From IMG/VR virus record IMGVR_UViG_3300008259_003073: DNA of 64,000 nucleotides; one strand, written 5' to 3'. A program made the translations under genes and the position numbers. Of this stretch, positions 28,101 to 44,354 are shown one piece after another. The notes under the pieces were generated by a model. That model was not told where the DNA came from. It searched no databases and saw nothing but the letters and a program-made list of their open reading frames with translations. Origin of the DNA: a virus (taxonomy: Duplodnaviria; Caudoviricetes). Within the stretch, counting starts at the first letter, position 1. Every line of letters starts with the position of its first letter.

Positions 28101-30347
28101 TCGTTTAGTTGCAAACTCTACAAAATTTTGAATAGATTGTTGTTTTGTTTCTGAAAGATTTTCTTTCATCAAATCCGAAGCATTAGCCATAGATTGATTT
28201 TTAGTTCCTTCTTTTTTATATCTAGCAATCGTTTGTATTAATTGTTCATCGGATAGTTTATAGTTTTGCATTATTTCTAATGTTTTTTCTATAAAGTTTG
28301 GTACAAATTTTTTCGTATCAAATCCTTCTTCTCCCTTTTTATTTTCAAATATACCAGCTACTCCCAATGCAATACCACCTGCAGAAGCTTGTGCCGCATT
28401 AGCACCTAAAGCTTCAAACGCAGAGTGTTTTATTATGTCTTTAACTATGTAAGACCCCAAATGACCTCCACCAAATTTAGCTGCTATTTTTGCTCCGGCT
28501 GCTTGTGCAATACCACTAGCACTAGCACCTTTTGATGCTGCAGATATGCCACCCATTAAACCACCTGTCGTTGCAATTGAACCCATTATTATTGCGGAAG
28601 TTTTTACAAAATTTCCAAGACCCTTTTTTTGTTTTTGACTTTCATTCCAAGACTTTTCTGCTAATTCCCGTTGTTCTGGAGTTAAATCTTTTCTATATAC
28701 AGGTTCTTTTTTTGTTTTTGGTTTTCCTAATATAGTTTTAGCCTGTATAGGATTACCATTTTCATCTTTAATCGGATGTCCATGCTTATCTTCTTTGTAA
28801 ACAGGAACATCTTTCATTTTAGGTTTTACTTTTCCTTGAAAATCTAGTTTACGAGTTGTTGAATCTGGTTCTGTAAAATCATCCCAATGTTTAGTTTTAC
28901 CTTCTGAATCTTTAACAGCCCCAAATCTTCCAGTAGTTGCCAATGATTTTATAGCACTAGCAGTTCCCACCAGCATTTCTTTGTTATGCTTGAATGTATG
29001 CATAATACCATGCCCTACATACGATGCTGCTTTTTTTAGTATATTCATAGCCCCTTTTCTTTCTTCAGATTGTGGGTTATTTGCTTTATCAATTGATTCG
29101 TTATCTCCTTTTGATAAACCTTTTCTGGCATCAGTTACTTGTTGACTTGTTTCCGCATCTTTCTTTTCTTTATCAGATTTTTCAGCAGACGCTTTTAATT
29201 CAGAACCACTTAATTTTTGAGGTGATGTAGGCGGTGGCGGAGGTGGTGGTGGTGGCGGTTTTGGGACACCTTGTTTTTGTTTCGTTGCATCCACCTTACC
29301 TTGTGCAGTAGCTCCCTTATTTACAGGTTGTCCAGGTTGTGATGGTTTTGGTTGATTTGCAGGTGCATCCGATGGTCCCTGTGCCATTCCTTTTTTCTTA
29401 ACTGCATCAGCTTCAGCAGGAGTTAGGGTTCTGATTTTACCATCTTCAGATTTATGACTCGCAGGTTGTCCTTCTTTACCATAGTATCCACCACCCAAAT
29501 GTTTCAATCCCATTTTTTCGGCTTCGGATTCTTCTTTGAAATATGTTCTGGTAAATTCTTCGAACATTTCTTCCATTGCAACTCTACCAATTATTTCTGC
29601 AATTGGATTATATAATTCGTCCGTTGGATGTTCAATTTGATGTCGAGTAGGATGTGGTTCGGGTCTCATTTCATACGATGGCTTCGTATTATTAGTCTCA
29701 TCTACTGAACCCGTTGGTGCTCCATTAATATATCCTCCTGGAAGATTTAATCCAGTTCCTATACCGCCTGGAAACCCATTTTCATTTAATTTACCTGTTA
29801 TCATACCGAATACCTCTTTATCAAATTTTGGATATGCTTTTAAAAATCCCTTTTTCTTTTCATCATCACTTCCCTTACCTAACCAATTACGAACATCTGT
29901 TCCACTAATTGGGTTTGGTTCGGCGGGAACGGCATATACATATCCAATTTCATCGTATCCGTATCCAGCTTTTTCGTTATATGGTTTAAAGTATTTACCC
30001 GCTAATCTATCTGCATCCTTTTCTCCAACTGCTGCTACATACGCAGTAGTTTTACCATCAAATTGAGATAATATTTCTTTTGGAGCATACGGATTACGAA
30101 CTTGAACTATCTTATCTTCCGGTATTCCAAACATTGTAGTAATTATTTTCACCTTCTCATTAAAATTAAAAGGAGATTTAGGACCTGATGTATCATTGGA
30201 TGTTCCAATATATACATTTGATTTTCCAAATTTTTGAGCAAGCTTTAAATAAGAAACATAATGTCCCTTATGGAATGGTTGAAAACGACCTGAATATACT
30301 ACTATGGTCCTTTTTACTATCGGTTTATCTTTTTCGTTCAAATTCAT
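25152..30347 (-). CDS. 1731-aa multidomain polyprotein: HIGH nucleotidyltransferase, Gly/Ala-rich hydrophobic segment, HExxH zincin, ligase-like nucleotidyltransferase
   Basis: SGRFQPFHKGH plus ISGTDVR; Pro10 linker; LAHEMVH; EKTDG...NLEVI...EGIVF...YKL. Modules are bounded by LNE/LSE/VKE/VSE/LTE. Confidence 0.75.
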   Translation of the reverse strand: MNLNEKDKPIVKRTIVVYSGRFQPFHKGHYVSYLKLAQKFGKSNVYIGTSNDTSGPKSPFNFNEKVKIITTMFGIPEDKIVQVRNPYAPKEILSQFDGKTTAYVAAVGEKDADRLAGKYFKPYNEKAGYGYDEIGYVYAVPAEPNPISGTDVRNWLGKGSDDEKKKGFLKAYPKFDKEVFGMITGKLNENGFPGGIGTGLNLPGGYINGAPTGSVDETNNTKPSYEMRPEPHPTRHQIEHPTDELYNPIAEIIGRVAMEEMFEEFTRTYFKEESEAEKMGLKHLGGGYYGKEGQPASHKSEDGKIRTLTPAEADAVKKKGMAQGPSDAPANQPKPSQPGQPVNKGATAQGKVDATKQKQGVPKPPPPPPPPPPTSPQKLSGSELKASAEKSDKEKKDAETSQQVTDARKGLSKGDNESIDKANNPQSEERKGAMNILKKAASYVGHGIMHTFKHNKEMLVGTASAIKSLATTGRFGAVKDSEGKTKHWDDFTEPDSTTRKLDFQGKVKPKMKDVPVYKEDKHGHPIKDENGNPIQAKTILGKPKTKKEPVYRKDLTPEQRELAEKSWNESQKQKKGLGNFVKTSAIIMGSIATTGGLMGGISAASKGASASGIAQAAGAKIAAKFGGGHLGSYIVKDIIKHSAFEALGANAAQASAGGIALGVAGIFENKKGEEGFDTKKFVPNFIEKTLEIMQNYKLSDEQLIQTIARYKKEGTKNQSMANASDLMKENLSETKQQSIQNFVEFATKRLKLKETPKITLVGGRKFAEAKTSLGGYDPISKSIYVATEGRLTADILRTLAHEMVHRKQDELGFIRNEVKDGADGSPVENQAHAVAGILMREYGRINKQIYTEVSNVGTANTADVPDGSFIKKGKKRKLDSDRPESWYANGGYTQTDFPKADAIFGDDDAEERTIKYTIKNLPSVEYVETDFVKEDINVDVDKGDEVLMGKFKNKRVTVKDIGKDDHGMPTINGKKATTFRIPRGESISQAVKDFTNNHKNDIGQSAELDTVDFDDNRKRQPGHQPNIKDTEDNGYEPVSEAQAVSSGKVHKFITGKNLGFKGKKYSEIDFETIGVDNKNGTIRVKVLAPKEIFGNEMSLDFRSVRRGPFFKTDTGKLNEVKLKDLVGNQYTYVIGNSDEKYLGPNDKKYVLVMVGKALKAYLYDGNFALNYLEREQRKEYDSFFENEILKPMLSKIDFTLNTFFTLDKNKLKWNLSSNDTRKMVDQIFTKNSKIPADIKKAYYEYRLDYAGVKLNESSTEDIIKDLDTAKNDLLKKVDALIAKKKKLYSNVDIESPMSADEKKLDKDIADLFSELNKLVLQKRNLKKKTNETILTEGGAYGHMSHPFDDMDLTFGDLKNIITGALTGELELTREKTDGQALAISWKNGRLIAARNKGHLANGGANAMGIEDVASKFSGRGGLTDAYNFAMKDLSAAIQSLSEPQRKKIFNEGHCFMNLEVIWPTSVNVIPYGQALLVFHNTTCYDESGKAVSADQSAATKLAGMIKQVNADVQSKYTIQGPPVTQLPKNENLSSKQGKYLSKLQKLQSEFQLSNNDGVSEYHQAWWSNFIDKSKVKLEKFERDALIKRWAFGDKSFRLNAIVDKEAQKWAMDNDKVNVVKQQKENVRQFEEIFLGVGADVLSFMSSVLTANPNAAVADMKNRLESTAEKVRGSGDVSKIAKLKMELSRLASIGGKGKIVPNEGIVFVYKGNTYKLTGTFAPLNQILGIFYE

Positions 30348-30361: not shown

Positions 30362-31804
30362 TTAAATGAGAGTCTTATTAAAAGATAGTAAAAATTTTAA
30401 TACTAATTGCATTTCGGCATTGTTTTTTATATCTCCAAATGAAGCTTTACCATATTTTAAAAACAAACTTTGATTATAAATACATATTTCTTTTACATTG
30501 TTTAAAAACTCATCTTTTTCTTCTTTTGTTTTATTTGAAAATTTAGTAATTTCTTGCTGAATCAATCGTAGTCTAGAAAAATCATCACACTCCATATCAT
30601 AACTCTCATCAATATAAGGATGAAATGTTTTAAATCCAAATCTATTTTGTAAGTATTCTAATGATTTTGCAGGTCCTGCTAATATAAATGGTTGACAATG
30701 CCCAATTGGTTTCCATATTTTTTCTGAAAGATATCCTGTTGGGAAATTTACAAATATATCATCAACTCCTTTTGATTGGAAAAATACCGATTCGGTTACA
30801 ATGCTTACATACGAGTTTAGATAGATATTTTTATCTTCAAACCCAAACCCCGCTATTTTAGTTAAATCATTTATATCCAATACAGAAGATGTTTCTTCGA
30901 TTAATTTACCAAATTCTTCATTTCTGTCATGCACATACATTTCTTCCACTGCATTTTTTGAATAAAATCTTTTATCCCAAGATACTAAACTTTTATCCAA
31001 TCCTAATTTATGCAAATGACTCAATAATAATAATCTATGTAATTTCCAATGTCTCGACAACAATAAAAAATCTTTTTTATCTTTTCCAATACTTTCTTCA
31101 AATTCTTCACAAGTTGCAACGGTAGATATGCCAGATTTAATAGCTCCTACCTGTGGTTCGTTTGAGTTCTCACCCCAATAACGAAAATCTGGATTATTTA
31201 TTATATTATTAAATTCTTGAGATTTGGCAACCATATTTAATGCATAATCGGCTACATTGTATTTCAATCCTAGCTTTTTAAGATTATTTTTTAATTTAAA
31301 ATCTGCAAATAAAAAATAAACTTTTTCTTCAGGTATTTCTTTATCACGAATATTTTTAATTAATCTTTCAAAGTTTTCTATTGTAACACCTTCACCACCA
31401 TCTATTGTATAATGAAAAAATAATTTACCATTACCATTTTTTATTTCATCAATTGCTACTTTTGACATGAAATTTAGGGCAAATTCATGTATTGGGTGAT
31501 TTCCAAAAAATTGATTTAAATTGCCAAATGGCTCTACAATGTAAAACCAATCATAATTAATACCGTTTCTTCTATCTTCTTTTATTTGATAAATTGATTT
31601 TTTTTCAACACATCTTTCAAAATAATTACTATTGTATACTGCCCAATCACAATTCCATCTTTTAGAAAAAAAGGCACCTGAATTTGAAAAGTCAAAATCA
31701 GATGCGTTATGTATTGTATTTATATATTTTGGATTCATACAATTAGGCAATTCACCATTGTATGTTATTATATCATACCCAAATATTAATTTTTTATCGC
31801 TCAT
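30362..31804 (-). CDS. Putative glycosyltransferase (GT-B-like, TE..SEK..KP family)
   Basis: YVSIVTES...LSEKIWKPI...QPFILAG...GFKTFHPYIDESYD; paralogue of three other ORFs in the window. Confidence 0.55.
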   Translation of the reverse strand: MSDKKLIFGYDIITYNGELPNCMNPKYINTIHNASDFDFSNSGAFFSKRWNCDWAVYNSNYFERCVEKKSIYQIKEDRRNGINYDWFYIVEPFGNLNQFFGNHPIHEFALNFMSKVAIDEIKNGNGKLFFHYTIDGGEGVTIENFERLIKNIRDKEIPEEKVYFLFADFKLKNNLKKLGLKYNVADYALNMVAKSQEFNNIINNPDFRYWGENSNEPQVGAIKSGISTVATCEEFEESIGKDKKDFLLLSRHWKLHRLLLLSHLHKLGLDKSLVSWDKRFYSKNAVEEMYVHDRNEEFGKLIEETSSVLDINDLTKIAGFGFEDKNIYLNSYVSIVTESVFFQSKGVDDIFVNFPTGYLSEKIWKPIGHCQPFILAGPAKSLEYLQNRFGFKTFHPYIDESYDMECDDFSRLRLIQQEITKFSNKTKEEKDEFLNNVKEICIYNQSLFLKYGKASFGDIKNNAEMQLVLKFLLSFNKTLI

Positions 31805-32011: not shown

Positions 32012-32554
32012 TTAGTTTTCGTAGTATAATGCAGGCCATTCAACAATAATATGAACCCCTCCTTCATTATACGCATTTGTGTATATCTTATAAATATCGT
32101 TTGGATTTTTTAATTCCCAAATTTTTGTAAATTGTAATATAGATTTGAATTCTTGTGTATAATCGTTTCTATGTTGAATGCCTGGGTCTAATGGATTGGT
32201 GCTTCCTACACCTACTCTAATTATAATATTTGCATTTTTACCAGTCATGTTTTCAAACTTATCAGCATGATTTATTAACTGATTTGCCGCAGATACTAAA
32301 AAATCCCATCGTGGATAGAATGATATAACGGTTTTTCCTGTAATTGCCAATCCTAAACTGATTCCCATTTGAGTTTCTTCCATAACAGGTAGCTCAATCA
32401 TTTTTTCTTTTGGTACTTCCGTTAAGGTTGTACTCATTGGATTTCCAGCATAAACTATTTGTTGTCCAATGAAGATTGTATCTTCTTTTTGGGCAAGAAA
32501 TGTCATTGCTTTGGATAATTCATCTTTATACGGAGATGTTTGTGGAGTACTCAT
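32012..32554 (-). CDS. TPP-dependent enzyme beta subunit (transketolase/E1-beta pyrimidine-binding domain only)
   Basis: FIGQ, ELPVMEETQMGISLGLAITG and YPRWDFL...NQLINH motifs; no C-terminal domain. Confidence 0.8.
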   Translation of the reverse strand: MSTPQTSPYKDELSKAMTFLAQKEDTIFIGQQIVYAGNPMSTTLTEVPKEKMIELPVMEETQMGISLGLAITGKTVISFYPRWDFLVSAANQLINHADKFENMTGKNANIIIRVGVGSTNPLDPGIQHRNDYTQEFKSILQFTKIWELKNPNDIYKIYTNAYNEGGVHIIVEWPALYYEN

Positions 32555-32555
32555 A

Positions 32556-33683
32556 TTATTTGTTTAAATGATTAAAATTATGACCTATGCAAATCTTATC
32601 GTTTACAAGGGTATGATTATTTATTTTATTTAGTTCTTCTAAAAATTCAGGAAACAATTCATGCTCTTCATTAAATACCTGTAATTCTTTTAATGTATCC
32701 GAATCATAGGTTCCCCAATCTACTAATTGTCTATAATTTATGTCCAAATGAAATGTTGAATCTTTAAATATATTGGTTACTAATTCATAAAACGCAAACA
32801 TTTCTTTGTAATTGTGTTTACTCACAACCATAGAAACAATAAACCATCCTATTGTATCAACAGTTGATAAAAACTTTAGATTTTTAATTAACCTATCCCA
32901 ATTACCATTTAATCTCGTTTTATTTTCATAGGTATCTTTTGTAGCAGCATCTATACTAACTTCAATTGTTTTGATGTAAGGACTTGCTTTCATTTGATTC
33001 CACAATTTTTCATCTAATAAATTACCATTTGTAATTATTTGCAATTGTTCTAAATTAGGATATTTAGATATGTCAAAATTTATTAAATAATCTCTATAAA
33101 TTTTTGAATAAAATGGGTCTCCACTACCTGTTATCATAATTCTTTTTAGATTACTCGCAAAGTTATCTTCTATAGATTTTAGTAAATGTAGTTTTGCGTT
33201 ATGTTGTGGTGATTCTAAATTATCATTTGGAATTAGAGATATTCTACAAGATGGGCATTTTAAATTGCAACTTCTATCAAACCCAAATAAAATTTCTTCT
33301 GGTGAAGTTTTAAAATTTACAATATCTTCTTCTGTGTGGATATTGTATACTTCTCTAAATTCTTCAATTTTCCTAAAAAAATATGGGGTTCTATCAGTAT
33401 TTATTAGTTCATTTAATCTTGGACATATCGTATGGTCGCAATATTTATAGCTACCGTCTAAAACGGATTTACGAATATTTTGTGCCCGTACTGATGTCCA
33501 ATTTCTCATTACATCATCGGTTTCATCTACTGGAAACCAATTTTCATTTCCATTAGAATCTACTCTGATATTGTGTGGTGCCCAAGATGGGCAACACACA
33601 AATTGAGATACAGTTTGTACATCGGAATACATAAATGGCATTTCACAAACGTATTTTTTAAGTATCTCTTTTTTATCATTCAT
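32556..33683 (-). CDS. Radical SAM protein with N-terminal Cys-rich segment
   Basis: RSCNLKCPSC (CX3CX2C); ITGSGDPF; IITNG; VSIDAA; extra N-terminal cysteines. Confidence 0.85.
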   Translation of the reverse strand: MNDKKEILKKYVCEMPFMYSDVQTVSQFVCCPSWAPHNIRVDSNGNENWFPVDETDDVMRNWTSVRAQNIRKSVLDGSYKYCDHTICPRLNELINTDRTPYFFRKIEEFREVYNIHTEEDIVNFKTSPEEILFGFDRSCNLKCPSCRISLIPNDNLESPQHNAKLHLLKSIEDNFASNLKRIMITGSGDPFYSKIYRDYLINFDISKYPNLEQLQIITNGNLLDEKLWNQMKASPYIKTIEVSIDAATKDTYENKTRLNGNWDRLIKNLKFLSTVDTIGWFIVSMVVSKHNYKEMFAFYELVTNIFKDSTFHLDINYRQLVDWGTYDSDTLKELQVFNEEHELFPEFLEELNKINNHTLVNDKICIGHNFNHLNK

Positions 33684-34675
33684 TATGGTTTCGAATTTGG
33701 ATTGTATTGATGTTTGTTTGTTTTATACCACTCAATGGTTTCTTTTAGAGCTTGTTTTAAATCTCTTTTTGGTTTCCAACCCAAATCATTAATCTTTTTA
33801 GAAGATAATAATCGAATCGGAATCATTGGTGCTTTATTATTTACATACTCAATAGGATTAGTGTTTCCATCTAATTCTTTAATTGTGGCAAGTGTTTCGT
33901 TTACTGTAAATCCTTCACCATAACATACATTGAAAATATCATATGTATCATTGTTCTCTGCAACAAAGATAAAACCATCTGCCATATCTTCAACGTGCAA
34001 CAAATCTCTCACTTCTGTTCCATCCCCCCAAACAGGAATAGGATTCAATCCATCTGCTACTTTACGGATGTTAGCAGGAGTAACGTGACACTTTTCGTAA
34101 TCAAATTTATCATTTGGTCCGAATGCATTAGATGGTCTAACAATCAAACATTGCATTGGTTCGTGAATCTGATTAGAAAAGAAATCACATAACATCTCAC
34201 CATACCGTTTCATACCACCAACTGCTTTGTAAACTGGTAACATTGGAGTTGCGTGTACATTTATATCTTCAGTACAAAATTCAGTACCCATATCTGGATA
34301 TGTTGTATTTGATGAAATAAATAAGAATTTACGAACTTTATTTTTCCAACTTTGTTCCATTAAATTCGTATTCATCTCCACATTTGGAGTGACGTGAAGT
34401 AATGGATTGAATTTGGTATCCAACGCGTTTGATGTATTTGCTGCACAATGGAATACTACATCTACATCTTTACTAACCAACTCACAAAACTCTGCAGTTT
34501 GTAAATCTCCTTTAATGTGTTCTACATTTTCAGTACCTTCGAAATCGTTTCTTAAATCTCTACTAAATGAGGTTGAGCGTAGGTTTTTGTACCCCTTTTC
34601 CCAAAGTAATCTTAATAAATGTGAACCAATAAATCCACTTGCACCTGTAACTAAAATCTTGTCTGTTTTTTTCAT
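33683..34675 (-). CDS. NAD-dependent sugar epimerase/reductase, GDP-fucose-synthase-like SDR
   Basis: TGASGFIG; RPSNAFGPNDKF...CHVTPANIRK; VWGDGTEVRDLLHVED. Confidence 0.85.
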   Translation of the reverse strand: MKKTDKILVTGASGFIGSHLLRLLWEKGYKNLRSTSFSRDLRNDFEGTENVEHIKGDLQTAEFCELVSKDVDVVFHCAANTSNALDTKFNPLLHVTPNVEMNTNLMEQSWKNKVRKFLFISSNTTYPDMGTEFCTEDINVHATPMLPVYKAVGGMKRYGEMLCDFFSNQIHEPMQCLIVRPSNAFGPNDKFDYEKCHVTPANIRKVADGLNPIPVWGDGTEVRDLLHVEDMADGFIFVAENNDTYDIFNVCYGEGFTVNETLATIKELDGNTNPIEYVNNKAPMIPIRLLSSKKINDLGWKPKRDLKQALKETIEWYKTNKHQYNPNSKP

Positions 34676-34683
34676 AACTTTTT

Positions 34684-35727
34684 TTATTTAAATATATCCC
34701 ATTTTAAAACTACATCATTTACAAATTTATGAGTTAATATGGATGATGTGTGTCCATACCAACTTCTTTCTAAATACTTTTTTTGTTCCTCAATACTCAT
34801 ACCGTTCATCTCTCTCCATAAAACTTTTGGCAGATTATCTTTCTCCAATTCGAAATTAAAATTTCTTATACTCCATTCTATTATTCCTCCGTATAAAGAT
34901 ACTAAATTTTCTTCAAAAAACCAAAAATATCTACTAAAATCTATCTTATCTGCATAAGTTTTTACATACGCATTATCAAATTCTAATTGTTTTTGTTCCC
35001 AAGTATTACAAATATCTTTATTTTCAATTATACACTCATAAACTGATTTATTGGTTGGTGTATGATAATATGGTGGGGTTCTACCTTCTCTTAAATAATT
35101 TTTAGAAAAGTTATTACTCATATTAAAAAACTTTATTTTTGTAATTCCATTTATTTCTAAAAAGTTGAGCAATAATAAAATATATTCGAACCATTCAAAA
35201 TATCTTTCATTATAAGTCATAACTTTATCCAACCATTCAAATGTAACTGGGTCTATATTAATAGGATTTTTGGTTGGATTGAAACCACCAGTTAAATGAA
35301 AATAACCATGTTCGTATTCTGTTGTTTTATCTTTACCACCTATTAAGTAATCACTGGTATGTACCCAGCTATCATTTTGTTTAATATAACTGATTGCAGG
35401 GTTTTTGTTAGATTCATATTTTTCAGGTGAAATAAAAAATGAATTTCGTGTCAGAGTTGTCCATTGAGCAACTACCGATATATCATTTGGGTTTACACCT
35501 TGCTTTAATAAATCAGAAACTTTGTAAATAATAGAACGAGCAATTGTTTTATTATCATGTGTAATAGTTCCATAATTATGTAATGTGTGTGTATCTTTTA
35601 ATTTTTCTTGCAACCAATTGGCCCAAGTCCAATTTTCTATCGGGTCTCGTTCCCATCTTCTTTCATCACCAATATTAATTCTAAAATTGTTAGTAAATGA
35701 ACAACCTGATACTACTATATGTTTCAT
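34684..35727 (-). CDS. SGNH-fold protein (GCSF variant)
   Basis: VSGCSFT; QWTTLTR; C-terminal GH. Confidence 0.55.
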   Translation of the reverse strand: MKHIVVSGCSFTNNFRINIGDERRWERDPIENWTWANWLQEKLKDTHTLHNYGTITHDNKTIARSIIYKVSDLLKQGVNPNDISVVAQWTTLTRNSFFISPEKYESNKNPAISYIKQNDSWVHTSDYLIGGKDKTTEYEHGYFHLTGGFNPTKNPINIDPVTFEWLDKVMTYNERYFEWFEYILLLLNFLEINGITKIKFFNMSNNFSKNYLREGRTPPYYHTPTNKSVYECIIENKDICNTWEQKQLEFDNAYVKTYADKIDFSRYFWFFEENLVSLYGGIIEWSIRNFNFELEKDNLPKVLWREMNGMSIEEQKKYLERSWYGHTSSILTHKFVNDVVLKWDIFK

Positions 35728-36440
35728 ATATAATTTAATGTTTGTAATTTATTTGATAGAAAATTTGCCCACATTTCATGTCCTTCTTTATTAGGATGTT
35801 CATTTTCAGTTGTTTTAGTGTATCCACCAAATGTTTCTTTTAAAAAATTTGGATAATTTGATATTTCATTATCTGAAATCATGCAGTTATCCCATCCAAA
35901 AAAGTGCAAATGTTTATAACCATTTAATTCCAAATATGCATATAGTGATTTTATATAATTTTTTGTTTTATTTATTTGATATTCTGTATCTAAAAAATAT
36001 CTTATAAATCTTTGAAAATCATTATCATATAATTCTATTAATTTTTTTCTGTCTTCATCCGTTCTATTATAATCTATATTTTCATTCATTACAAATTTAG
36101 TAAAATTCCCATAAAAATTTACATCTTTTAGTATTTTATCTGCCGATGCGTGTAATGCGTTTGGTATTGTAAAATACCAGTTCTTATTATTGTGTGTTGT
36201 AATAAGTTCTGTACGAATATAATTCGTCCATTGAATTATTAATACATCTTCTTTTTTAAATTCTTCATTTAAAATATAAAATACTTTTCTAAAAACATAA
36301 TCGTTGGATGCTCCACAATTTCCAAAGTTATAACAATCTACTTTATGTTTTTCAGAAAGTAATTTTGTATAATTTTCTATTTCACAATTTTCTAACCCCT
36401 GACCTTCTGTAAACGAGCATCCAACGGAATATAATTTCAT
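35724..36440 (-). CDS. SGNH-fold protein (GCSF variant)
   Basis: VGCSFTEG; NFGNCGASNDY; IQWT; HPNKEGH. Confidence 0.7.
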   Translation of the reverse strand: MKLYSVGCSFTEGQGLENCEIENYTKLLSEKHKVDCYNFGNCGASNDYVFRKVFYILNEEFKKEDVLIIQWTNYIRTELITTHNNKNWYFTIPNALHASADKILKDVNFYGNFTKFVMNENIDYNRTDEDRKKLIELYDNDFQRFIRYFLDTEYQINKTKNYIKSLYAYLELNGYKHLHFFGWDNCMISDNEISNYPNFLKETFGGYTKTTENEHPNKEGHEMWANFLSNKLQTLNYI

Positions 36441-37438
36441 TACAATCTACTTTTGTATTCTAAAATTGATTTTGTTAAACCTTCTTTCAAAGATGTTTGT
36501 GGTAAAATTCCATATTTTTTTTGCTTATCAGCTCCTAAACATCTAATTGGGTCACCATTTGTTTTGGTTTCATCCCATACTATGTTTTTAGTTTTGCCTG
36601 TAATTTCGGTATAACACTCGACAATGGTTTCAATTGTATCTTTGATACTTACTGCTTCTGCACATCCAAAGTTGATAATATCCCTAACTTCTTTTTTAAC
36701 AACATCAATCGATGCCTGTGCAACATCATCTCCAAATACAAAATCCCTTTTAGATGAACCATTACCCCAACAAACCATATCATCACCTTCTACATTGAAT
36801 AGTTTCCAAATGTTAGATGATATTACAGTTGCATCTTGTGCAAAGTTATCGTTTGTTCCGTAGATATTTGAAGGTCTGATTACAGTCCAATTATCCCAAC
36901 CATACTGAACTCTCAATGAATCCAAAGTAAGTTCTCCCATTCTTTTTGTCCAACCTGGATGCCAATCTAAACGAGATGGAGTTGATGCCCAAGTTTCTTC
37001 CTGATTCCATGTATCTTCTTCGTTCATTATATCTGCTGGTCTATAAACCCCAACCGATGAAAGATACACAAACCAATCAACTTTGGCATCAAACGATGCT
37101 TTAATCATATTGGTGTTAAACATCAACATTGGGAATAGATAATCAGCAGGACAAGTTGATGACCTTGCTGGTGAACCTTTTACTCCTGCGATATGTAATA
37201 CAATATTAATATCATCTAACTTAAATAAATTCTCACAATGTGAAAGATATGTTAAATCGGTTTTAACCAATTCCAATCTATCTGTGTATTGTGCTTTTAA
37301 GAAGTTTAAATTTTCACTAAATTTAAGGTCTACTGCATATACTTTATCAGCTCCTTCTTCTAAACATTTTCTAACGGTTGGTAATCCTACCAACCCATTT
37401 GCTCCTGTAACCAGAACGGTTTTTCCTTTTAATTCCAT
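36440..37438 (-). CDS. NAD-dependent sugar epimerase/reductase SDR
   Basis: TGANGLVG; RPSNIYGTNDNF; WGNGSSKRDFVF. Confidence 0.85.
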   Translation of the reverse strand: MELKGKTVLVTGANGLVGLPTVRKCLEEGADKVYAVDLKFSENLNFLKAQYTDRLELVKTDLTYLSHCENLFKLDDINIVLHIAGVKGSPARSSTCPADYLFPMLMFNTNMIKASFDAKVDWFVYLSSVGVYRPADIMNEEDTWNQEETWASTPSRLDWHPGWTKRMGELTLDSLRVQYGWDNWTVIRPSNIYGTNDNFAQDATVISSNIWKLFNVEGDDMVCWGNGSSKRDFVFGDDVAQASIDVVKKEVRDIINFGCAEAVSIKDTIETIVECYTEITGKTKNIVWDETKTNGDPIRCLGADKQKKYGILPQTSLKEGLTKSILEYKSRL

Positions 37439-37445
37439 TTTATTT

Positions 37446-38876
37446 TTATTTTGTTGTGTAATCTATTTTTATTTTTTCAAATATTTCATCAAAACACTCA
37501 TAGTTTTCAAATGAGTATATATGCTTTTGGTTATATAATAATATATCAATTATTGAATAATACCAATTATGTAATTCCTCAATTGGCATGTTTTTTAGTT
37601 TAATTAATTCTTTTTCTAAAAGTAACATTCGCTTTTTAGGGTCTTTTTCTAAATCATAACTTTCATCTATAAATGGTTCAAAGGTTTTAAACCCTAATCT
37701 CCGTAATTCTGCTAATGTTAAATAATCCCCAAATACTAAAAATGGTTGTAAATTTGATATTGGTTTAAATATTTTTTCTGAAAGGAATACGTTTGGTCCA
37801 AAGAATGTTTCGGTTACTAAATGAAAATATGAATTTGCGTACCATTCTTTTTTATTATTTCTAACTCCAAATGCTCTTTTTTTATCAGATGGCAATTCCT
37901 TTGTATCATCTTCATAAGGTAATAATTTCTCTAATTCAGATGTATATTTTTCAACATTTTCCTCCGTATCCTCATATACTTTATTTACAATATTTTTTAA
38001 TATATTTTTTTCTAATTTTTCAATAAATGTAAATAATCCATCTTTTAATAAATCGTATTTTAGTGCAAAATATCCCAACATAGTTCTTTGTGGTTTATTC
38101 ATTGTTCTATTTGGGGATAAAAATTTATGTTTTCTAATTTTAGTGGAATCTAAATCTTTTTCTTCAAGTAACTCACACAAATATCCCAAATTACCAATCA
38201 TTGGAAATGAATTTATTTCATCGGCATATCCTCTTATAAATAAATGCCCATTATATATTTTTATTTTACTATCAGGATATATTTCATAGTATTCCGAAAA
38301 TTTACTTCCTCCTAAAATTATGATATTAGAAGCATCTACTCCTAATTCATTTAATTGGATTTCAAATTGTTGTATATTGTGTGAATCATATAAAGGGTCA
38401 TGTATCATATTTACTAATATTTTTACTTTGCCCGATTTAATTAAATCAAATAATTCAGGTTCTATAATGTCTTTTAAAAACCAAGTATATTCTGTATCAT
38501 TTAACAAAAAACTGTTTTTATTATGTAGTGCAGAAAGTGTATCTTTTATTTCTAATGGATATACATAAATGAAATCATCATCTTTAATTTGATTAAATGA
38601 TATTATATTTTTAGGAAAATTTCTAGAAAAATAATTAAACAATTCCGAATGGTCGAATTTTATACCCTTTTGTTCTGATTTATATTGTAGTATTTCATAC
38701 CAATCTATTTTTAAATTGTTTTTTAAAACATATTGAATAAATTTAGTAATAACAGGATGCATTCCATTACCAAATGGCTTGAGTTGACCGTGGTCAATAT
38801 ACCAATCGGTATATATCATTTTAAAATTTGAACCATGTATTGCATTCATATTAATATCTGTATATTTTTTTAACAT
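37446..38876 (-). CDS. Putative glycosyltransferase (GT-B-like, TE..SEK..KP family)
   Basis: FHLVTET...LSEKIFKPI...QPFLVFG...GFKTFEPFIDESYD. Confidence 0.55.
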   Translation of the reverse strand: MLKKYTDINMNAIHGSNFKMIYTDWYIDHGQLKPFGNGMHPVITKFIQYVLKNNLKIDWYEILQYKSEQKGIKFDHSELFNYFSRNFPKNIISFNQIKDDDFIYVYPLEIKDTLSALHNKNSFLLNDTEYTWFLKDIIEPELFDLIKSGKVKILVNMIHDPLYDSHNIQQFEIQLNELGVDASNIIILGGSKFSEYYEIYPDSKIKIYNGHLFIRGYADEINSFPMIGNLGYLCELLEEKDLDSTKIRKHKFLSPNRTMNKPQRTMLGYFALKYDLLKDGLFTFIEKLEKNILKNIVNKVYEDTEENVEKYTSELEKLLPYEDDTKELPSDKKRAFGVRNNKKEWYANSYFHLVTETFFGPNVFLSEKIFKPISNLQPFLVFGDYLTLAELRRLGFKTFEPFIDESYDLEKDPKKRMLLLEKELIKLKNMPIEELHNWYYSIIDILLYNQKHIYSFENYECFDEIFEKIKIDYTTK

Positions 38877-39810
38877 TATTTCCTACATAATTGTTATCGT
38901 GAAAGAAACTTTCAAATAACAATTCATTTTTTATATAATCTTTAGTACACATTAAATTAAAAATATTATCTGAAATTTCTGGTGATAGATTATAATTTAT
39001 ATTAGCATTCAGCATATCATTTACGAAATTTTTAATTCCATCTACTATTTTTATTTTATCACTAAAGTATTTTTGATTTTCTGTATCGTTTTCGTTTATA
39101 AACTCACCATTAACAATATCGATATATGTTCCAACTTTATCGGTAAATACTGATTCAAAGAATATGATATTGTTTTTAAAATTACATTTTTCAAAATCAT
39201 AAAAACCTTTTGTATTTTTCAAATCTATATTTCCTTTATAGGTCATATACCTGCCTTTCAAATCCAAATCAAATGTTTTTTGTAAATAATATTGAGTAGT
39301 ACCTTGATAACCACTATCTACCATATATACATTTTTACATTCTCCAATCGTATTATTAATATATTTTCTATACGAATCTCTTAATACCTTTGATTTACCC
39401 AATATATCTGGAGCACATAAATTTAAATTTGGTAATCTATTTGAAGTATCAATTTGAATATCATTTTCAATAATGTAATTTATTTGAAATCTATCTTTAA
39501 GTAATTCGGATAAATTACCTTGGTATCTATGTAAATTAAATGATTCATAAACATCATATTCAGATACAAACGAAGATAGTGATGCCAATTTTCTTGATGT
39601 TTTAAAATAAACTGAATTTGGTAAATTATATTTTATTTTAAAATCTTGATATAATTGATTAAGAAAATATCCTTCTCGTGAGTTAAATAAAATCAAATCA
39701 CCGTCTTTTACTTCATCTTTTAACCAATTAAAATAATTAAATACTAATGGTCCAAAAAAGATATAACCAAGTTCTTCCAATGATTCTGGATTTTTAACAA
39801 TGTGGTCCAT
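38851..39810 (-). CDS. Glycan-cluster protein resembling the C-terminal part of HAD-family hydrolases
   Basis: FGPLVFNY, FNSREGYFL, YFKTSR and VDSGYQGTTQ motifs seen in polysaccharide-cluster HAD fusion proteins. Confidence 0.5.
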   Translation of the reverse strand: MDHIVKNPESLEELGYIFFGPLVFNYFNWLKDEVKDGDLILFNSREGYFLNQLYQDFKIKYNLPNSVYFKTSRKLASLSSFVSEYDVYESFNLHRYQGNLSELLKDRFQINYIIENDIQIDTSNRLPNLNLCAPDILGKSKVLRDSYRKYINNTIGECKNVYMVDSGYQGTTQYYLQKTFDLDLKGRYMTYKGNIDLKNTKGFYDFEKCNFKNNIIFFESVFTDKVGTYIDIVNGEFINENDTENQKYFSDKIKIVDGIKNFVNDMLNANINYNLSPEISDNIFNLMCTKDYIKNELLFESFFHDNNYVGNNVKKIYRY

Positions 39811-40241
39811 TATAAATAAACTTTAAATGAAGGTATACCAAGTGAATTCCACAAATCAATTATTTCTTGTTTATCATCAAATGCACAAAACACATCATCT
39901 TTGATAAAATCATTGTACATTTTTCGTTTTAATTCTACATCTTTAATATAATGATTTTCTTCACCTCTCATAAACAATCCATCATATTTAATCCCATATA
40001 TTTCTAACCAATCCTGTGTAGAATTAAGTATCATTCGTGGTCTACTAGTTAGTATATAAATCCCATAATCATTATATAGGTGATTTATAATATCAATCAT
40101 AGGTGCGTTTGGTTTATCTGATATTACATTTTTATAATCATATAAAACATCCCAATCGATACTACCATCAGATTTAGTTGCAAGTGCATACCTCTTTTTA
40201 TTTATTGAAAGAGTATTATCTATATCTACTATAACAATCAT
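39810..40241 (-). CDS. HAD-family phosphatase, PseT/polynucleotide 3'-phosphatase-like
   Basis: VDIDNT motif I; TSRP; LFMR...D.ELK; AFDDK. Confidence 0.75.
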   Translation of the reverse strand: MIVIVDIDNTLSINKKRYALATKSDGSIDWDVLYDYKNVISDKPNAPMIDIINHLYNDYGIYILTSRPRMILNSTQDWLEIYGIKYDGLFMRGEENHYIKDVELKRKMYNDFIKDDVFCAFDDKQEIIDLWNSLGIPSFKVYL

Positions 40242-41437
40242 TTTCGTAAACCTTGTTCTTTATAAGTTACTGGTATTTTAATACCAGTATTACACCCATT
40301 ACAATTATCACAAAATGTGATGTATCCAAGTTCGGTAAATCCCAAATCAAACTTAATTAAATCTTTGGGGTATACTTCTGATAAATTTACATAATCATTT
40401 TCGTTTGGTGAAAACAATTTAGTTAGAACTGCGCTTGTATTAAGGTGACAATAATAAAACTTGCCATCATTCAATCCTCTAAATGGAGCAGTGCAACTAT
40501 CAAAGTGATTTATGAGTTCTTCTTCACTCATATTATTTTTAATTCTCAAATCACCAAAATCATACCACTCGATATTATTCCTTACATAGTGATTGATATT
40601 TTTCTCTTGGTAAGTTCCTAAAACTCTATCAACTTTACTTTTTAATTTTTCTAATTTATTAGAGTAATTACTTACACTTAAAATAACATTATTATTTTTT
40701 AACACTTCTAGTATTTCTTCTTTTGGGAGGACTGTACCATTAGTGGTTATTATAAACTTATCAATCTTATCTGAATACTTTTCTAAAATGTATTCGATTA
40801 CATCTTTGATATTTGGGTGTAAAAACGGCTCTCCACCAACTAAATGGAAAATACTTACATAATCAACAAGATTAAAATATAAGTCAATATCATTTAAGAT
40901 AGTTTGAGTATCTCTGTGTTTTGGTAGTTCGTAATGTGGTATAAACATATTACAAAACGAACACGCCAAATTACATTTTTCAGTCACCAATACATCTGTT
41001 TGAAATATGTGAACCTTTTGTTTGTGTATAAATGGCCAAATAGATGCAATGTTTTTATACCAAGTATATTTTACATTTAGTTTATCTAAATATTCTTTAT
41101 AGTATTGTCTATACTCATCTGATGTGATAATTACATTTTCACCAGTTGGTTCAAAGTTATCTATATGAACTAATTTTAAATTCTCACGAGTGTTGACGAG
41201 GTTTTTTGATTGATGATAAAATGAACTAATTTCGTTTACATTCAATATAGTTGATTCATCTTTAACATCGTGGTCAACTATGTATTTTATTTTTAAAACA
41301 TTATTACCCAACAAATAATCTACACTTCTAATAAATTGGACACACTCTTTACTTGCACCGAATAGAACATATTCGGTTTCAGTATCCCATTCTTGGATAA
41401 ATTTCTCAAAATTATGTAGATTAGGATTATATTTCAT
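40238..41437 (-). CDS. Radical SAM protein with N-terminal Rossmann-like domain
   Basis: EKCNLACSFC; LVGGEPFLHP; ITTNG; C-terminal C..(LNDGKFYYC)..CDNC cluster. Confidence 0.85.
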   Translation of the reverse strand: MKYNPNLHNFEKFIQEWDTETEYVLFGASKECVQFIRSVDYLLGNNVLKIKYIVDHDVKDESTILNVNEISSFYHQSKNLVNTRENLKLVHIDNFEPTGENVIITSDEYRQYYKEYLDKLNVKYTWYKNIASIWPFIHKQKVHIFQTDVLVTEKCNLACSFCNMFIPHYELPKHRDTQTILNDIDLYFNLVDYVSIFHLVGGEPFLHPNIKDVIEYILEKYSDKIDKFIITTNGTVLPKEEILEVLKNNNVILSVSNYSNKLEKLKSKVDRVLGTYQEKNINHYVRNNIEWYDFGDLRIKNNMSEEELINHFDSCTAPFRGLNDGKFYYCHLNTSAVLTKLFSPNENDYVNLSEVYPKDLIKFDLGFTELGYITFCDNCNGCNTGIKIPVTYKEQGLRK

Positions 41438-41440
41438 ATA

Positions 41441-42070
41441 TTAAAATACTACCCATTTACCACTTCCGTAGTGCGGATACTTTGATTTATATTTGTAGTG
41501 AATTACATCGGATGGAATATCTTTCTTTTTATTCCAAGTTGCTTCCGTTGGTGTGTAAGTTGAAACATCATTATCTTCAACTATAAAATGTAAAGGTAAA
41601 TCAAAATTTCTAGCGTATTTATGAACTTCATAGAATATACCACTCTCAAAACTCATATCTCCTATAAATACCCAAACCTTTTCATCACTACCTTTGGCCT
41701 TAATTCCCATTGCTACACCCAATGCAATAGAAAGAGTTCCACCTACAATTGCGGATGAATAAAACTTCTCATCTATCTTACAAAGAGTTATAGATTTACC
41801 ATCAAGTATTTCATCGGTAATCCATTGTGGAGATATTCCTTTTAATAAAGCATGGTAGTGAGACCTCCAAGTTGAAAACACCCAATCGTTTTTAGATATT
41901 CTTTTGAATACCTCTATTAGTTGTTCTTCATTTCCGTTTGATAAGTGAATTGGTCCTCTGATTTTACCATCTTCCCAGTTTTGAACTATATCATTCTCAA
42001 ACTGAATGAGTTCTTCTGCATTCCAATTATGTTCTCTAACTATTGGATATTGTTCTAAATTTTGTATCAT
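41441..42070 (-). CDS. TPP-dependent dehydrogenase E1 alpha-like subunit (short)
   Basis: RGPIHLSNG; FSTWRSHYH; SAIVGG; GDM...EDN TPP-binding motif. Confidence 0.85.
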   Translation of the reverse strand: MIQNLEQYPIVREHNWNAEELIQFENDIVQNWEDGKIRGPIHLSNGNEEQLIEVFKRISKNDWVFSTWRSHYHALLKGISPQWITDEILDGKSITLCKIDEKFYSSAIVGGTLSIALGVAMGIKAKGSDEKVWVFIGDMSFESGIFYEVHKYARNFDLPLHFIVEDNDVSTYTPTEATWNKKKDIPSDVIHYKYKSKYPHYGSGKWVVF

Positions 42071-42603
42071 CTATCTCTTTTTTGTAGTATTGGATTGTTT
42101 GTTGGCCATTCCATTTGATATTCAGGGTCATTCCACTTTACCACACCTTGTTCATTTGCATCCACATAACCGTCTTTGTAAAATAAGTTATAGTGAAACA
42201 TACAATCAGTTAATGCATAGTGTCCGTTTGCAAATCCTGGTGGAACTAATACCTGATTTCTTAATCTTTCCGTTATAATAAAACTTTCCCACTCCCCAAA
42301 GGTAGGACTATTTTCTCTCATATCCAAAACAACTAAATAGATATCACCTACTGCTGCTTGTACCAATTTCCAAGTCTTTTTATCCCAGTGTAATCCTCTC
42401 AATACACCTTTATAAGAACGAGAGAATCTACCATGTACTTCACATTTGCCATCGATATAATCAACTATTGGGTGCTCAATTGAATGAAATGTTGTCCATA
42501 TTTCACCTCTGTATTCTCTAAATACGGATGGTTGAAATACTGGAACCTCATGTCCAAATTTTTTTGATGGAGTAATTTGAAACTCATCCCATTTACTACT
42601 CAT
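42067..42603 (-). CDS. rfbC: dTDP-4-dehydrorhamnose 3,5-epimerase (RmlC/cupin)
   Basis: SRSYKGVLRGLHW; KLVQ...G.IYLVVLDMR..SPTFG; VPPGFANGH; WNDP. Confidence 0.9.
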   Translation of the reverse strand: MSSKWDEFQITPSKKFGHEVPVFQPSVFREYRGEIWTTFHSIEHPIVDYIDGKCEVHGRFSRSYKGVLRGLHWDKKTWKLVQAAVGDIYLVVLDMRENSPTFGEWESFIITERLRNQVLVPPGFANGHYALTDCMFHYNLFYKDGYVDANEQGVVKWNDPEYQMEWPTNNPILQKRDR

Positions 42604-42604
42604 A

Positions 42605-43570
42605 TTATGTATTATTTGCGTATCCTAAAGGAAATCCATTTCTAAATTCTGCTCCCATTTTTGGAACAATCATTTGGTATGCGTGAATTAATTCTTCGAT
42701 ACCTCTATCTAACCCCCACTCTGGTACCCATCCAGTTTCCTCTAGCTTTGCGTTAGAAACTATGTAATCCCTCTTATCGGGGTCTTCGTAATAATCGTTG
42801 TATGATACGGCAAAATCCTTTACCTGGGATTGAATCTTTTCTAATAATTCTTGCTTTGAAAGATTGGCATTACTCAACCCTACATTAAATACTTGTCCTT
42901 TATATTTTTCGTAATTTATAATCATAAATAAAAATGTAAATGCTACATCTTGAATATGAATAAAATTTCTCTTAAAGTTTTTCTCAAATACTACAATGTA
43001 TTTATCAGTAATTGCTTTATAAACAAAATCGTTTACCAATAAATCGGTTCTCATACGAGGTGATACACCAAATACAGTTGCCAATCTAAATGTAATTGCC
43101 GATGTGGTTGCTCTTAAAAAAGTTTCAGCATCACACTTTGTTTGTCCATACACTGATATAGGTGTTAAAGGTGAATCTTCGGTGCATTCAGTTTGTCCAA
43201 CTCCAATACCATAACCACTATTTGTATTTGGATATAAAATTTTTTTATCCTTTGCAAATTTTACTATGTTACATATTTGGTCAAAATTGATTTCCCTTGC
43301 CAGCTTTGGGTCTGCTGCGCAAGCTGGGAACCCAACAATTGCAGCTAATGGAATTATTACATCAGCTTCATTACACAACTTTTCTAAAAGAGATTCATTA
43401 CGAACATCTCCATATATGAATTTGAATTTAGGATTTGAAGTATATTGTAATAATGAGGTTTGATTAAATAATAGTTTATCCAATACTACTACCTTATAGT
43501 TTTGTTCCAATAACATACCAACTAATACAGAACCCAAATAACCTGCACCACCTGTAATTAATACTTTCAT
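42605..43570 (-). CDS. NAD-dependent epimerase/dehydratase (extended SDR)
   Basis: TGGAGYLGS; YGQTK (canonical YxxxK); FRLATVFGVSPRMRTDLLVN. Confidence 0.9.
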   Translation of the reverse strand: MKVLITGGAGYLGSVLVGMLLEQNYKVVVLDKLLFNQTSLLQYTSNPKFKFIYGDVRNESLLEKLCNEADVIIPLAAIVGFPACAADPKLAREINFDQICNIVKFAKDKKILYPNTNSGYGIGVGQTECTEDSPLTPISVYGQTKCDAETFLRATTSAITFRLATVFGVSPRMRTDLLVNDFVYKAITDKYIVVFEKNFKRNFIHIQDVAFTFLFMIINYEKYKGQVFNVGLSNANLSKQELLEKIQSQVKDFAVSYNDYYEDPDKRDYIVSNAKLEETGWVPEWGLDRGIEELIHAYQMIVPKMGAEFRNGFPLGYANNT

Positions 43571-43574
43571 AATT

Positions 43575-44354
43575 TTAAAAATAAATGTTCTTTTCTATGT
43601 AAAATTGTGGATAGTTTCCACTAAAACTAACATCCCATACTTTATATCTATTGTAATGGTTAAAATCACATAAAAATGCAAAATTATTTCTATATGGATA
43701 ATCGTAATTTAATTTTCGTAAATCATTAAAAACTATATGTGAATACTGTTTTTCATAATTATCAATAAAATCTTGAATTTCTTCAATTTTTAATTTTTTG
43801 TTTAATACAAACGCCATTTCAAATTCAAAATCTCCAATATGTTGATGTTCCTCTGGTCCAATCATACTACCACATCCGAACCAATAGAAAGAATTTTCGT
43901 ATTTCACTTTTTCACCATCTTCAAATTCAATAATTCCTACCAACTTTCCATTTTTATAGCATTTAATATTTCTTTCCAAAAAATGGTCACAAATCATAGC
44001 GTACTCATTGAATTCATTAGTTTCTTCTGGTAATAATCCGGTAAAAATTTGTTTTGAATACATTTCTGTTTTACCATCTATTTCTTTTGAAAACCAATAT
44101 GTAAATGCAATTGAAACAATTCCCAAATTATCTTTATAAGCAGAAATACCAGAATGCATTCCATTTCTGGCAATAGCAAATGATTCTTTATTTTGAGCTA
44201 CAGTATCAGGAAATATTTTAAACTTTAAGAATAAAGAAAAATCTTCATCCATATGTTTATCAATTCTAGATGATACGGAGTATCTACTTTCCGGCAAAAC
44301 GAAAAATATATTATCTTTGTTTACTCTTAAACTCATATTTTTATTGTTGAACAA
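43575..44354 (-). CDS. Stand-alone LamG-like domain protein
   Basis: DFSLFLKFK...CYKNGKLVG...FGCG...FVLNKKL..EEI pattern resembles the inserts of the neighbouring GT7 proteins. Confidence 0.5.
   Translation of the reverse strand: MFNNKNMSLRVNKDNIFFVLPESRYSVSSRIDKHMDEDFSLFLKFKIFPDTVAQNKESFAIARNGMHSGISAYKDNLGIVSIAFTYWFSKEIDGKTEMYSKQIFTGLLPEETNEFNEYAMICDHFLERNIKCYKNGKLVGIIEFEDGEKVKYENSFYWFGCGSMIGPEEHQHIGDFEFEMAFVLNKKLKIEEIQDFIDNYEKQYSHIVFNDLRKLNYDYPYRNNFAFLCDFNHYNRYKVWDVSFSGNYPQFYIEKNIYF

Follow-up and report, generated by a model that had tools for sequence, protein, structure and literature searches.

A minimal, split E1-like enzyme in a phage glycan island and its candidate role in branched-sugar synthesis

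The phage record IMGVR_UViG_3300008259_003073 (Duplodnaviria; Caudoviricetes) encodes two short proteins that resemble the α and β subunits of the E1 component of pyruvate dehydrogenase (PDH). The 64,000-nt stretch analysed here (the window) is part of this 201,940-bp record, whose completeness is 100% by CheckV estimate. Terminase, portal and T4-like major head protein genes are located at 10-24 kb of the window, and a tail-fibre gene with an endosialidase-chaperone domain at 57-63 kb. A long run of co-oriented glycan genes on the minus strand fills the space between the head genes and the tail-fibre gene, and both E1-like genes, together termed mini-E1, belong to this run. The α gene (41441-42070, minus strand) encodes 209 aa with the diphosphate-binding (PP) domain for thiamin diphosphate (ThDP), and matches Pfam E1_dh (E 1e-14) and phrog_34187 (E 1.4e-53). 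The β gene (32012-32554, minus strand) encodes 180 aa with the ThDP pyrimidine-binding (Pyr) domain, and matches Transket_pyr (E 2.4e-5) and phrog_34187 (E 5.9e-24). The α start codon overlaps the stop codon of an RmlC-like gene (42067-42603) as ATGA, and this gene is itself preceded by a short-chain dehydrogenase/reductase (SDR) gene at 42605-43570. The β gene starts 1 nt past the stop codon of a radical S-adenosylmethionine (SAM) gene (32556-33683), upstream of which lies an SDR of the guanosine diphosphate (GDP)-fucose-synthase type (33683-34675). The gap between α and β is 8,886 bp. A sequence-only reading of the window had described this arrangement, with a C-terminally short E1-β about 9 kb from an E1-α, and it is real in each of these respects.

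Both proteins resemble E1 subunits only in part. The α protein covers profile positions 6-172 of 300 in E1_dh, scores 86.9 bits (E 1e-24) with TIGR03182 (PDH E1 alpha), whose family cut-off is 393.85, and matches human PDH E1-α at E 4e-9. The β protein matches the NCBIfam PDH E1 beta profile (E 1.5e-8) at positions 6-140 of 327 only, and its 33.9 bits with NF006667 (E1 beta) compare with a cut-off of 321. Its resemblance is confined to the N-terminal part of the E1-β subunits of PDH and branched-chain 2-oxo-acid dehydrogenase (BCKDH).

The two proteins match different parts of one profile. In phrog_34187, which has 405 positions, α covers positions 2-197 and β covers positions 235-401. The cyanophages P-TIM68 (gp190) and S-SM2 (SSM2_198) carry both halves in one protein of ~380-400 aa, which is annotated as 'transketolase central region-containing protein'. 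These PHROG 34187 proteins are true members of the mini-E1 family and likewise lie in sugar (heptose) clusters, but they are single fused polypeptides, unlike the split pair of the window. Their identities to the window α and β are 45% and 33% in P-TIM68 and 40% and 29% in S-SM2. A literature search on the cyanophage 'transketolase central region' protein returned nothing relevant. The two halves are fused likewise in ~55 metagenomic clusters, and α and β are adjacent in SAR11 genomes.

Gene context was counted in 80 IMG/VR loci that carry a close α, with 10-kb flanks. A β gene lies within 10 kb of α in 70 of these loci and 10-11.4 kb away in four more for which the full records were inspected; five of the others end at contig ends, and one (L065) was left out of the full-record check. 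Thus, wherever a related locus extends far enough for the question to be asked, α and β occur together, which is the outcome of the co-occurrence analysis that had been called for in advance. In phages, as little as 6 bp and as much as 11.4 kb separate the two genes, and three loci have them in inverted order. Since α and β are neighbours elsewhere, the 9-kb gap in the window is a derived state, produced by insertion of a variable cassette of GT-B glycosyltransferase genes, SDRs and a radical SAM-HAD-u319 trio. The fusion in cyanophages, the adjacency in SAR11 and the constant co-occurrence support the view that α and β are the halves of one functional ThDP enzyme.

The predicted structure of a natural fusion is consistent with a compact two-domain enzyme. 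The AlphaFold model of the fused protein P0138 has a pLDDT of 89.3 and a pTM of 0.91. Its β half superimposes on residues 1-180 of human, Thermus and Geobacillus E1-β with Z scores of 23.4-23.6 and root-mean-square deviations (rmsd) of 1.7-1.8 Å. Residues 1-180 of the ~325 residues in E1-β correspond to the N-terminal Pyr domain, and mini-E1 β ends where that domain ends. The whole model aligns with the PP and Pyr domains of transketolase (Z 20.9) in VIA-align, which resolved the superposition; Foldseek of the full fused model gave a poor global rmsd to transketolase and to DXPS (or DXS), the synthase for 1-deoxy-D-xylulose 5-phosphate. Mini-E1 shares the superfamily and the PP-then-Pyr order with these two enzymes. 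However, they retain a third, C-terminal domain and exceed 600 aa, whereas mini-E1 has no third domain and resembles them only marginally in sequence (E 1e-3 to 1e-7). Compared with true E1-α and AcoA, the mini-α is short of ~40 internal and ~90 C-terminal residues in the alignment.

The residues required for ThDP chemistry are located in the parts that remain. In α, the Mg/ThDP motif GDM-X28-N (D138 and N167), the R69/H71 pair and the C-terminal YPHxG loop are kept, and H200 of this loop aligns with the loop His of true E1-α. In β, Glu59 aligns with the cofactor-activating Glu of E1-β, and His128 in the QH.N motif matches the His of the E1-β QHSQ motif. These catalytic positions of α and β are invariant or nearly so across the mini-E1 family. 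With its ThDP/Mg motif, its activating Glu and its two catalytic His residues intact, mini-E1 looks catalytically complete, although stripped of its outer parts. An α2β2 assembly is predicted, which would correspond to two copies of the naturally fused protein.

Mini-E1 is widespread. At least 530 IMG/VR contigs encode it. An exhaustive HMMER search collected 117 clusters (50% identity) at E 1e-30 or better, usually ~200-215 aa in length, and a 90%-identity database holds 5,362 relatives at E 1e-5 or better. A mini-α occurs in 22 of 301 Pelagibacteraceae species genomes (~7%), where mini-α proteins score at least 184 bits and true PDH E1-α proteins at most 71 bits. In a maximum-likelihood tree with a limited outgroup of six SAR11 E1-α sequences and one AcoA, all 44 mini or fused α sequences form one clade with 99/100 support and a stem of 1.86 substitutions per site. 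Fusion to β arose at least three times inside this clade, and the window α is sister to the SAR11 copies. Two contigs, VHCC01000006.1 (L003) and NZWA01000006.1 (L004), are syntenic with the phage glycan island, and their α proteins are 79% and 70% identical to the window α. They are filed in metagenome-assembled genomes of Pelagibacterales and Flavobacteriales and are probably phage DNA binned with bacterial genomes.

The nearest relatives of mini-E1 in sequence and fold are the heterotetrameric E1 components of 2-oxo-acid dehydrogenases (PDH, BCKDH, AcoA/AcoB). Mini-E1 keeps their Mg/ThDP motif, activating Glu and both active-site His residues. In contrast to them, it scores far under the family cut-offs, its α is ~130 residues shorter, and it has neither the C-terminal domain of β nor an E2, E3 or lipoyl partner. 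This C-terminal domain docks E2 in PDH complexes. A profile search of the whole phage record found a single E1_dh match and no match to 2-oxoacid_dh (E2, PF00198), Biotin_lipoyl (PF00364) or Pyr_redox_dim (E3, PF02852), and Transketolase_C matched neither β nor any other part of the record. The lipoyl domain (PF00364) was not matched in two further complete relatives either, E2 and E3 having been searched in this phage only. Within the cluster, the 113-aa open reading frame (ORF) and four unknown proteins showed no lipoyl-like match in Pfam at E up to 5. The sequence-only reading had held that the pair is not a PDH-type auxiliary metabolic gene. The lack of E2, E3 and lipoyl proteins, the absence of the E2-docking domain of β and the position of the α proteins in their own clade apart from PDH and AcoA bear this out, and the exclusion of such a role in favour of a sugar-pathway role is well supported. 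A useful contrast is record CAKLQH020000018.1 (L108), labelled 'Acinetobacter phage MD-2021a', which holds a full lipA-acoA-acoB-E2 operon with full-length E1 subunits and is probably bacterial DNA.

The genes adjoining mini-E1 point to nucleotide-sugar chemistry. The SDR at 42605-43570 (minus strand) matches PDB entries 6VO6 and 6VO8 (E 2.7e-105, residues 2-308); 6VO6 is presumably Campylobacter jejuni Cj1427, a GDP-heptose C4-dehydrogenase, and the window SDR is thus a putative GDP-sugar C4-dehydrogenase. Its homologue is present in 59 of the 80 loci, and Gmd takes its place in SAR11 and jumbo-phage loci. The RmlC-fold protein (42067-42603, minus strand) matches Pfam dTDP_sugar_isom (E 3.2e-32). 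Its best PDB matches are the GDP-D-glycero-4-keto-D-lyxo-heptose epimerases 8DCL, 8DCO and 7M14 (~2e-38), compared with ~3e-23 for RmlC enzymes acting on deoxythymidine diphosphate (dTDP) sugars, and it appears to be of the GDP-4-keto-heptose 3- or 3,5-epimerase type; it occurs in 63/80 loci. Two further SDRs lie between α and β on the minus strand. The first (33683-34675), of the GDP-fucose-synthase or Cj1428-like C4-reductase type, matches NF047922 (E 7.2e-42) and is found in 67/80 loci; its PDB matches include 7ANH, 7M13 and 7ANC (titled 'GDP-L-fucose synthase') at ~1e-19 to 1e-27. The second (36440-37438), a GDP-fucose-synthase-like ketoreductase or epimerase, matches NF047922 (E 6e-34) and PDB GDP-fucose synthases (~1e-17) and is found in 66/80 loci. 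Its SAR11 counterpart directly follows β. The sugar chemistry of the window thus seems to involve GDP-linked sugars of the C. jejuni heptose type rather than the dTDP-rhamnose type: the SDR at 42605-43570 resembles Cj1427, the 'RmlC' resembles Cj1430 and the reductases resemble GDP-fucose synthase.

The same setting recurs in other lineages. A GDP-4-keto-sugar generator (Cj1427-like or Gmd), a Cj1430-like epimerase, GDP-fucose-synthase-like reductases and GT-B transferases are constant neighbours of mini-E1. Four SAR11 loci contain an unbroken Gmd-α-β series, followed downstream by an SDR-epimerase-SDR-GHMP kinase series or by an acetolactate-synthase (ALS)-like ThDP enzyme and a split transketolase. 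In jumbo phages of the 333-kb class, a Gmd that is 61-63% identical to SAR11 Gmd precedes epimerase-α-β. Therefore, two ways to a GDP-4-keto sugar are both linked to mini-E1. In C. jejuni, three enzymes convert GDP-heptose to a 4-keto sugar, its epimers and the reduced capsular heptoses (PMC10680097). The members of that module (Cj1427, Cj1430 and Cj1428) are close homologues of the constant α/β neighbours; the survey of the C. jejuni heptose pathway makes no mention of thiamin (PMC10680097), whereas the phage and SAR11 versions insert a ThDP enzyme. The constant GDP-sugar neighbours, together with fusions of β to a GT-B protein or to a B12 radical SAM protein, make a sugar-pathway role rather than a PDH role well supported, and the membership of mini-E1 in a nucleotide-sugar pathway with a 4-keto intermediate is likewise well supported by gene content. 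One SAR11 island (L006:116-3450, parts of which are also seen in L007-L009) holds three ThDP enzymes side by side, namely the mini-E1 pair, a 557-aa ALS-like protein with the TPP_enzyme_N/M/C architecture of the YerE type and a canonical split transketolase made of N and C subunits.

Mini-E1 is always beside GDP-sugar-modifying genes, and it therefore most likely branches an unusual sugar rather than feeding energy metabolism. The reading favoured here, with a probability of roughly one half, is that it is a ThDP carboligase that places a C2 branch on a GDP-4-keto sugar. A Cj1427-like C4-dehydrogenase, or the 4,6-dehydratase Gmd in SAR11 and jumbo phages, would produce GDP-4-keto-heptose or GDP-4-keto-hexose, and the Cj1430-like cupin epimerase would adjust C3 and/or C5. 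From a small 2-oxo acid, with pyruvate as the likeliest donor, the ThDP enzyme would then release CO2 and retain an acyl-anion equivalent bound to ThDP. Addition of this species to the carbonyl of the sugar would leave a C-acetyl branch, which may be reduced to 1-hydroxyethyl by one of the SDRs that resemble GDP-fucose synthase. The GDP-dependent GT-B transferases beside α and β would place the sugar on a glycan, which could belong to the virion or to the envelope of the host. In this scheme, the identity of the donor, the carbon that accepts it, the chemistry of branching and the quaternary structure are all predicted. The synthesis of a C-branched nucleotide sugar had been proposed in the sequence-only reading: the nucleotide-sugar pathway through a 4-keto intermediate stands, and the pyruvate-derived C2 branching is argued by analogy.

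That analogy had been drawn with YerE, an acetolactate-synthase-type flavoprotein, which proved not to be the closest precedent. The YerE-type architecture (TPP_enzyme_N/M/C, Pyr-then-PP) differs from the window pair, which consists of E1_dh and Transket_pyr domains and has fused relatives in the PP-then-Pyr order; YerE is thus a functional analogue with an unrelated ThDP fold and no relative of mini-E1. Its ThDP-dependent addition of a pyruvate-derived C2 unit to a nucleotide-4-keto sugar is described in one account as the only such reaction characterised in vitro (PMC4425429). Closer precedents are the E1-α/β-like pairs AviB1/AviB2 of avilamycin and Pau11/Pau12 (= Plm8/Plm9) of paulomycin biosynthesis, which genetics links to the transfer of a pyruvate-derived C2 unit onto C4 of a 4-keto sugar (PMC4425429, PMC4802897). 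In the accounts of these pathways, the transfer by AviB1/AviB2-type pairs is followed by ketoreduction (PMC4425429, PMC4802897, PMC4753412), and octoses with a hydroxyethyl branch at C-4 are reported from Gram-negative polysaccharides in one of them (PMC4753412). Like these pairs, the window pair consists of an E1-α-like and an E1-β-like protein with no E2 or E3, and it is located among sugar genes with a 4-keto-forming enzyme and a 3,5-epimerase. The settings differ, in that AviB1/AviB2 and Pau11/Pau12 belong to actinomycete antibiotic clusters for dTDP-type deoxysugars, whereas mini-E1 belongs to phages and SAR11 in a GDP-heptose/mannose-type context. Attachment of the branch may coincide with glycosyl transfer or come later, a timing that was proposed for avilamycin and paulomycin.

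Several observations weigh against a branching role. The C. jejuni module needs no ThDP enzyme, and its C4-reductase simply reduces the 4-keto sugar (PMC10680097); because that module runs without one, the two reductases of the window could consume the keto group themselves. AviB1/AviB2 and Pau11/Pau12 are full-length E1 proteins, with 325 aa in Pau11 and 345 aa in Pau12 (PMC4425429), compared with 209 and 180 aa for mini-E1, a comparison made by description and length only. The cyanophage fused gene lies beside a zinc alcohol dehydrogenase and sugar kinases, with no 4,6-dehydratase there. In several relatives, GHMP or APH kinases adjoin α or β or are fused to α, an arrangement that would also fit action on a sugar phosphate.

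The kinases lead to the alternative that survives best, although it is unlikely. Here, the enzyme would act on the carbon chain, either by joining a C2 unit, in the manner of transketolase or DXS, to the aldehyde of a sugar phosphate or nucleotide sugar, which would extend the chain or supply a heptose or deoxy-ketose precursor, or by cleavage of a C-C bond beside the keto group. The match of the whole fused model to the transketolase PP and Pyr domains (Z 20.9) is in line with this. DXPS, which performs pyruvate-dependent carboligation within the transketolase fold, demonstrates ligation of a pyruvate-derived C2 unit to an aldehyde in this family (PMC8015787). Cyanophage loci carry GmhA, heptose kinase/adenylyltransferase and carbohydrate kinase genes beside the fused gene, a GHMP kinase lies beside α-β in L005 and L017-L019, an APH kinase is fused to α in P0219, and genes for a GHMP kinase and a SIS-domain protein lie elsewhere in this phage. 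However, the sequence of mini-E1 is closest to 2-oxo-acid E1, not to transketolase or DXS, the SAR11 islands already hold a canonical split transketolase beside it, and its tightest linkage is to the generators of GDP-4-keto sugars, in the contiguous series Gmd-α-β or Cj1427-like-RmlC-α.

Less probable still is a role as a non-oxidative 2-oxo-acid decarboxylase or as an acyloin synthase, in which mini-E1 would either deliver an aldehyde or acyloin building block or remove CO2 from a keto acid borne by the sugar, for a later non-carbohydrate decoration. Minimal two-domain ThDP decarboxylases do exist, among them ComDE and the split phosphonopyruvate decarboxylase, and the glycan island also holds sugar-decorating methyltransferase, radical SAM and carbamoyltransferase genes. 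Yet in the known two-domain decarboxylases Pyr precedes PP, the reverse of the order here, and their ThDP family is a different one; Pfam TPP_enzyme_N is absent from mini-E1. Both the fusion of β to GT-B and the direct adjacency to Gmd speak for a reaction on the sugar itself. A true auxiliary E1 for pyruvate, acetoin or branched-chain 2-oxo acids, which would use host E2 and E3 to rewire central carbon metabolism, would agree with the automatic annotation of relatives as 'pyruvate dehydrogenase E1 component alpha subunit' and with the retention of both catalytic His residues of reductive acylation, but it is very improbable given a β C-terminal domain that is missing and not encoded elsewhere in the phage, an α short of ~40 internal and ~90 C-terminal residues, the absence of a lipoyl domain from three complete or near-complete phage genomes and of E2 and E3 from this phage, the one searched for them, the separate mini-α clade, and the constant position of mini-E1 among sugar genes, whereas a genuine acoAB operon has E2 and lipA.

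E1-like sugar-branching pairs are already known from actinomycete antibiotic clusters. A literature search found no description of the minimal two-domain version, the GDP-heptose-type context, the fusions to GT-B and radical SAM domains, or the abundance in phages and SAR11. Automatic 'pyruvate dehydrogenase E1 alpha' labels mean that viral-ecology surveys could score mini-E1 as central-carbon auxiliary genes; the evidence here marks them as glycan-building genes. If the carboligase reading is true, mini-E1 would be a compact two-domain ThDP scaffold for forming C-C bonds on nucleotide sugars, and branched higher-carbon sugars would occur in the surface glycans of abundant ocean and lake organisms and their phages. 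Such a new class of sugars on aquatic phage or host surfaces would bear on phage adsorption and host range. A further, tentative suggestion is that these are the smallest known transketolase-superfamily enzymes (PP and Pyr, ~390 aa; phages, SAR11, DPANN-like), possibly in complex with GT-B and sometimes radical SAM proteins, which could build carbon-branched or chain-extended sugars of the nine-carbon class from GDP-4-keto-heptoses. The natural fusions (α-β, β-GT-B and β-B12 radical SAM) are ready-made constructs for biochemistry.

The 476-aa protein u476 (37446-38876, minus strand) is a predicted GT-B-fold glycosyltransferase (AlphaFold2 pLDDT 93.0) found in 66/80 loci, and its gene is the one most often right after α. 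Its model matches the GT-B enzymes SdgB and OtsA in Foldseek (~1e-5), and the ESM Atlas gives a weak lead to GT10. GT10 members use GDP-fucose. A conserved ...ET...SEK... motif in u476 and u480 is, we presume, reminiscent of the GDP-binding motif of GT10 fucosyltransferases. The paralogue u480 (30362-31804, minus strand; 27/80 loci) is the usual gene right after β, and in VHCC01000006.1 the same stretches are matched by the C-terminal half of u480 and by that of u476. This GT-B family has expanded strongly: 82 related loci hold 134 of its ORFs, and a single locus may have up to three or four paralogues. In the jumbo-phage lineage, β is fused to a GT-B domain (P0388-P0433, ~565-601 aa; ~578 aa in this lineage); these fusions form 46 clusters, some with more than 100 member sequences. 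One example is L048:10644-12377 on a 333-kb IMG/VR contig. An hhalign comparison of u476 with the C-terminal part of the β fusions gave a probability of 99.6%, and the two are homologous. In the same locus, a carbamoyltransferase gene (L048:12382-14046) follows the fusion, and a gene for a PhyH-type Fe/2-oxoglutarate dioxygenase (L048:8716-9459) lies two genes upstream of α, just ahead of an RmlC-like gene. The C2-branching step of avilamycin also involves a non-haem iron enzyme, AviO2 (PMC4425429).

Other domains are joined to the halves more rarely. In P0330 (681 aa) and P0335 (659 aa), β is fused to a B12-binding domain plus a radical SAM domain, a second type of fusion and one that connects the ThDP enzyme with radical chemistry, on contigs too short for context; the B12 radical SAM part of P0330 had no BLAST match among the radical SAM proteins of the window. 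P0150 has an intein inside α, P0134 has a LAGLIDADG domain ahead of α, and P0219 is the fusion of an APH-type kinase domain to α.

The remaining genes between α and β on the minus strand are accessory. A radical SAM gene (40238-41437; Radical_SAM E 3.7e-15), a HAD phosphatase gene (39810-40241; HAD_PNKP E 2.4e-17) and the gene for a 319-aa protein, u319 (38851-39810), which has no Pfam or PHROG match, each occur in 14/80 loci. This trio (38851-41437) behaves as one mobile cassette that is always directly after α. Downstream lie a rare 238-aa protein with no family match (35724-36440; 4/80 loci) and a 347-aa protein with a weak DUF6071 match (34684-35727; E 0.0014; 28/80 loci). The radical SAM gene ahead of β (32556-33683, minus strand; Radical_SAM E 2e-9) is an accessory insertion that is found in 9/80 loci and is absent from the close relative VHCC01000006.1. 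Radical SAM proteins flanking α and β were considered as obligatory partners and rejected, since they occur in only 14/80 and 9/80 loci. Hence, the 9-kb split and the radical SAM gene beside β are present as first described, but they are lineage-specific cassette insertions and not part of the core.

A further radical SAM gene of the N_Twi type (44333-45748; NF033640 E 2.9e-105) occurs in 52/80 loci, where it often forms tandem arrays of two or three copies upstream of the epimerase-α pair. The 1731-aa protein at 25152-30347 was considered as a sugar nucleotidyltransferase and rejected, with a match in 1/80 loci, a count for which the 10-kb flanks may fall short; no PF00483 nucleotidyltransferase was found in this phage. 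Outside the window, the same phage encodes a 350-aa GHMP kinase (G000:C1:29126-30178; L100:7126-8178) and a 166-aa SIS-domain protein (G000:C1:200092-200592; L101:8093-8593), both of which are candidates for the supply of heptose precursors. Near the GHMP kinase gene lie genes for an APS-kinase-like P-loop protein and for a Cpn60 chaperonin, and a 765-aa Hint/intein protein is encoded near the SIS-domain gene.

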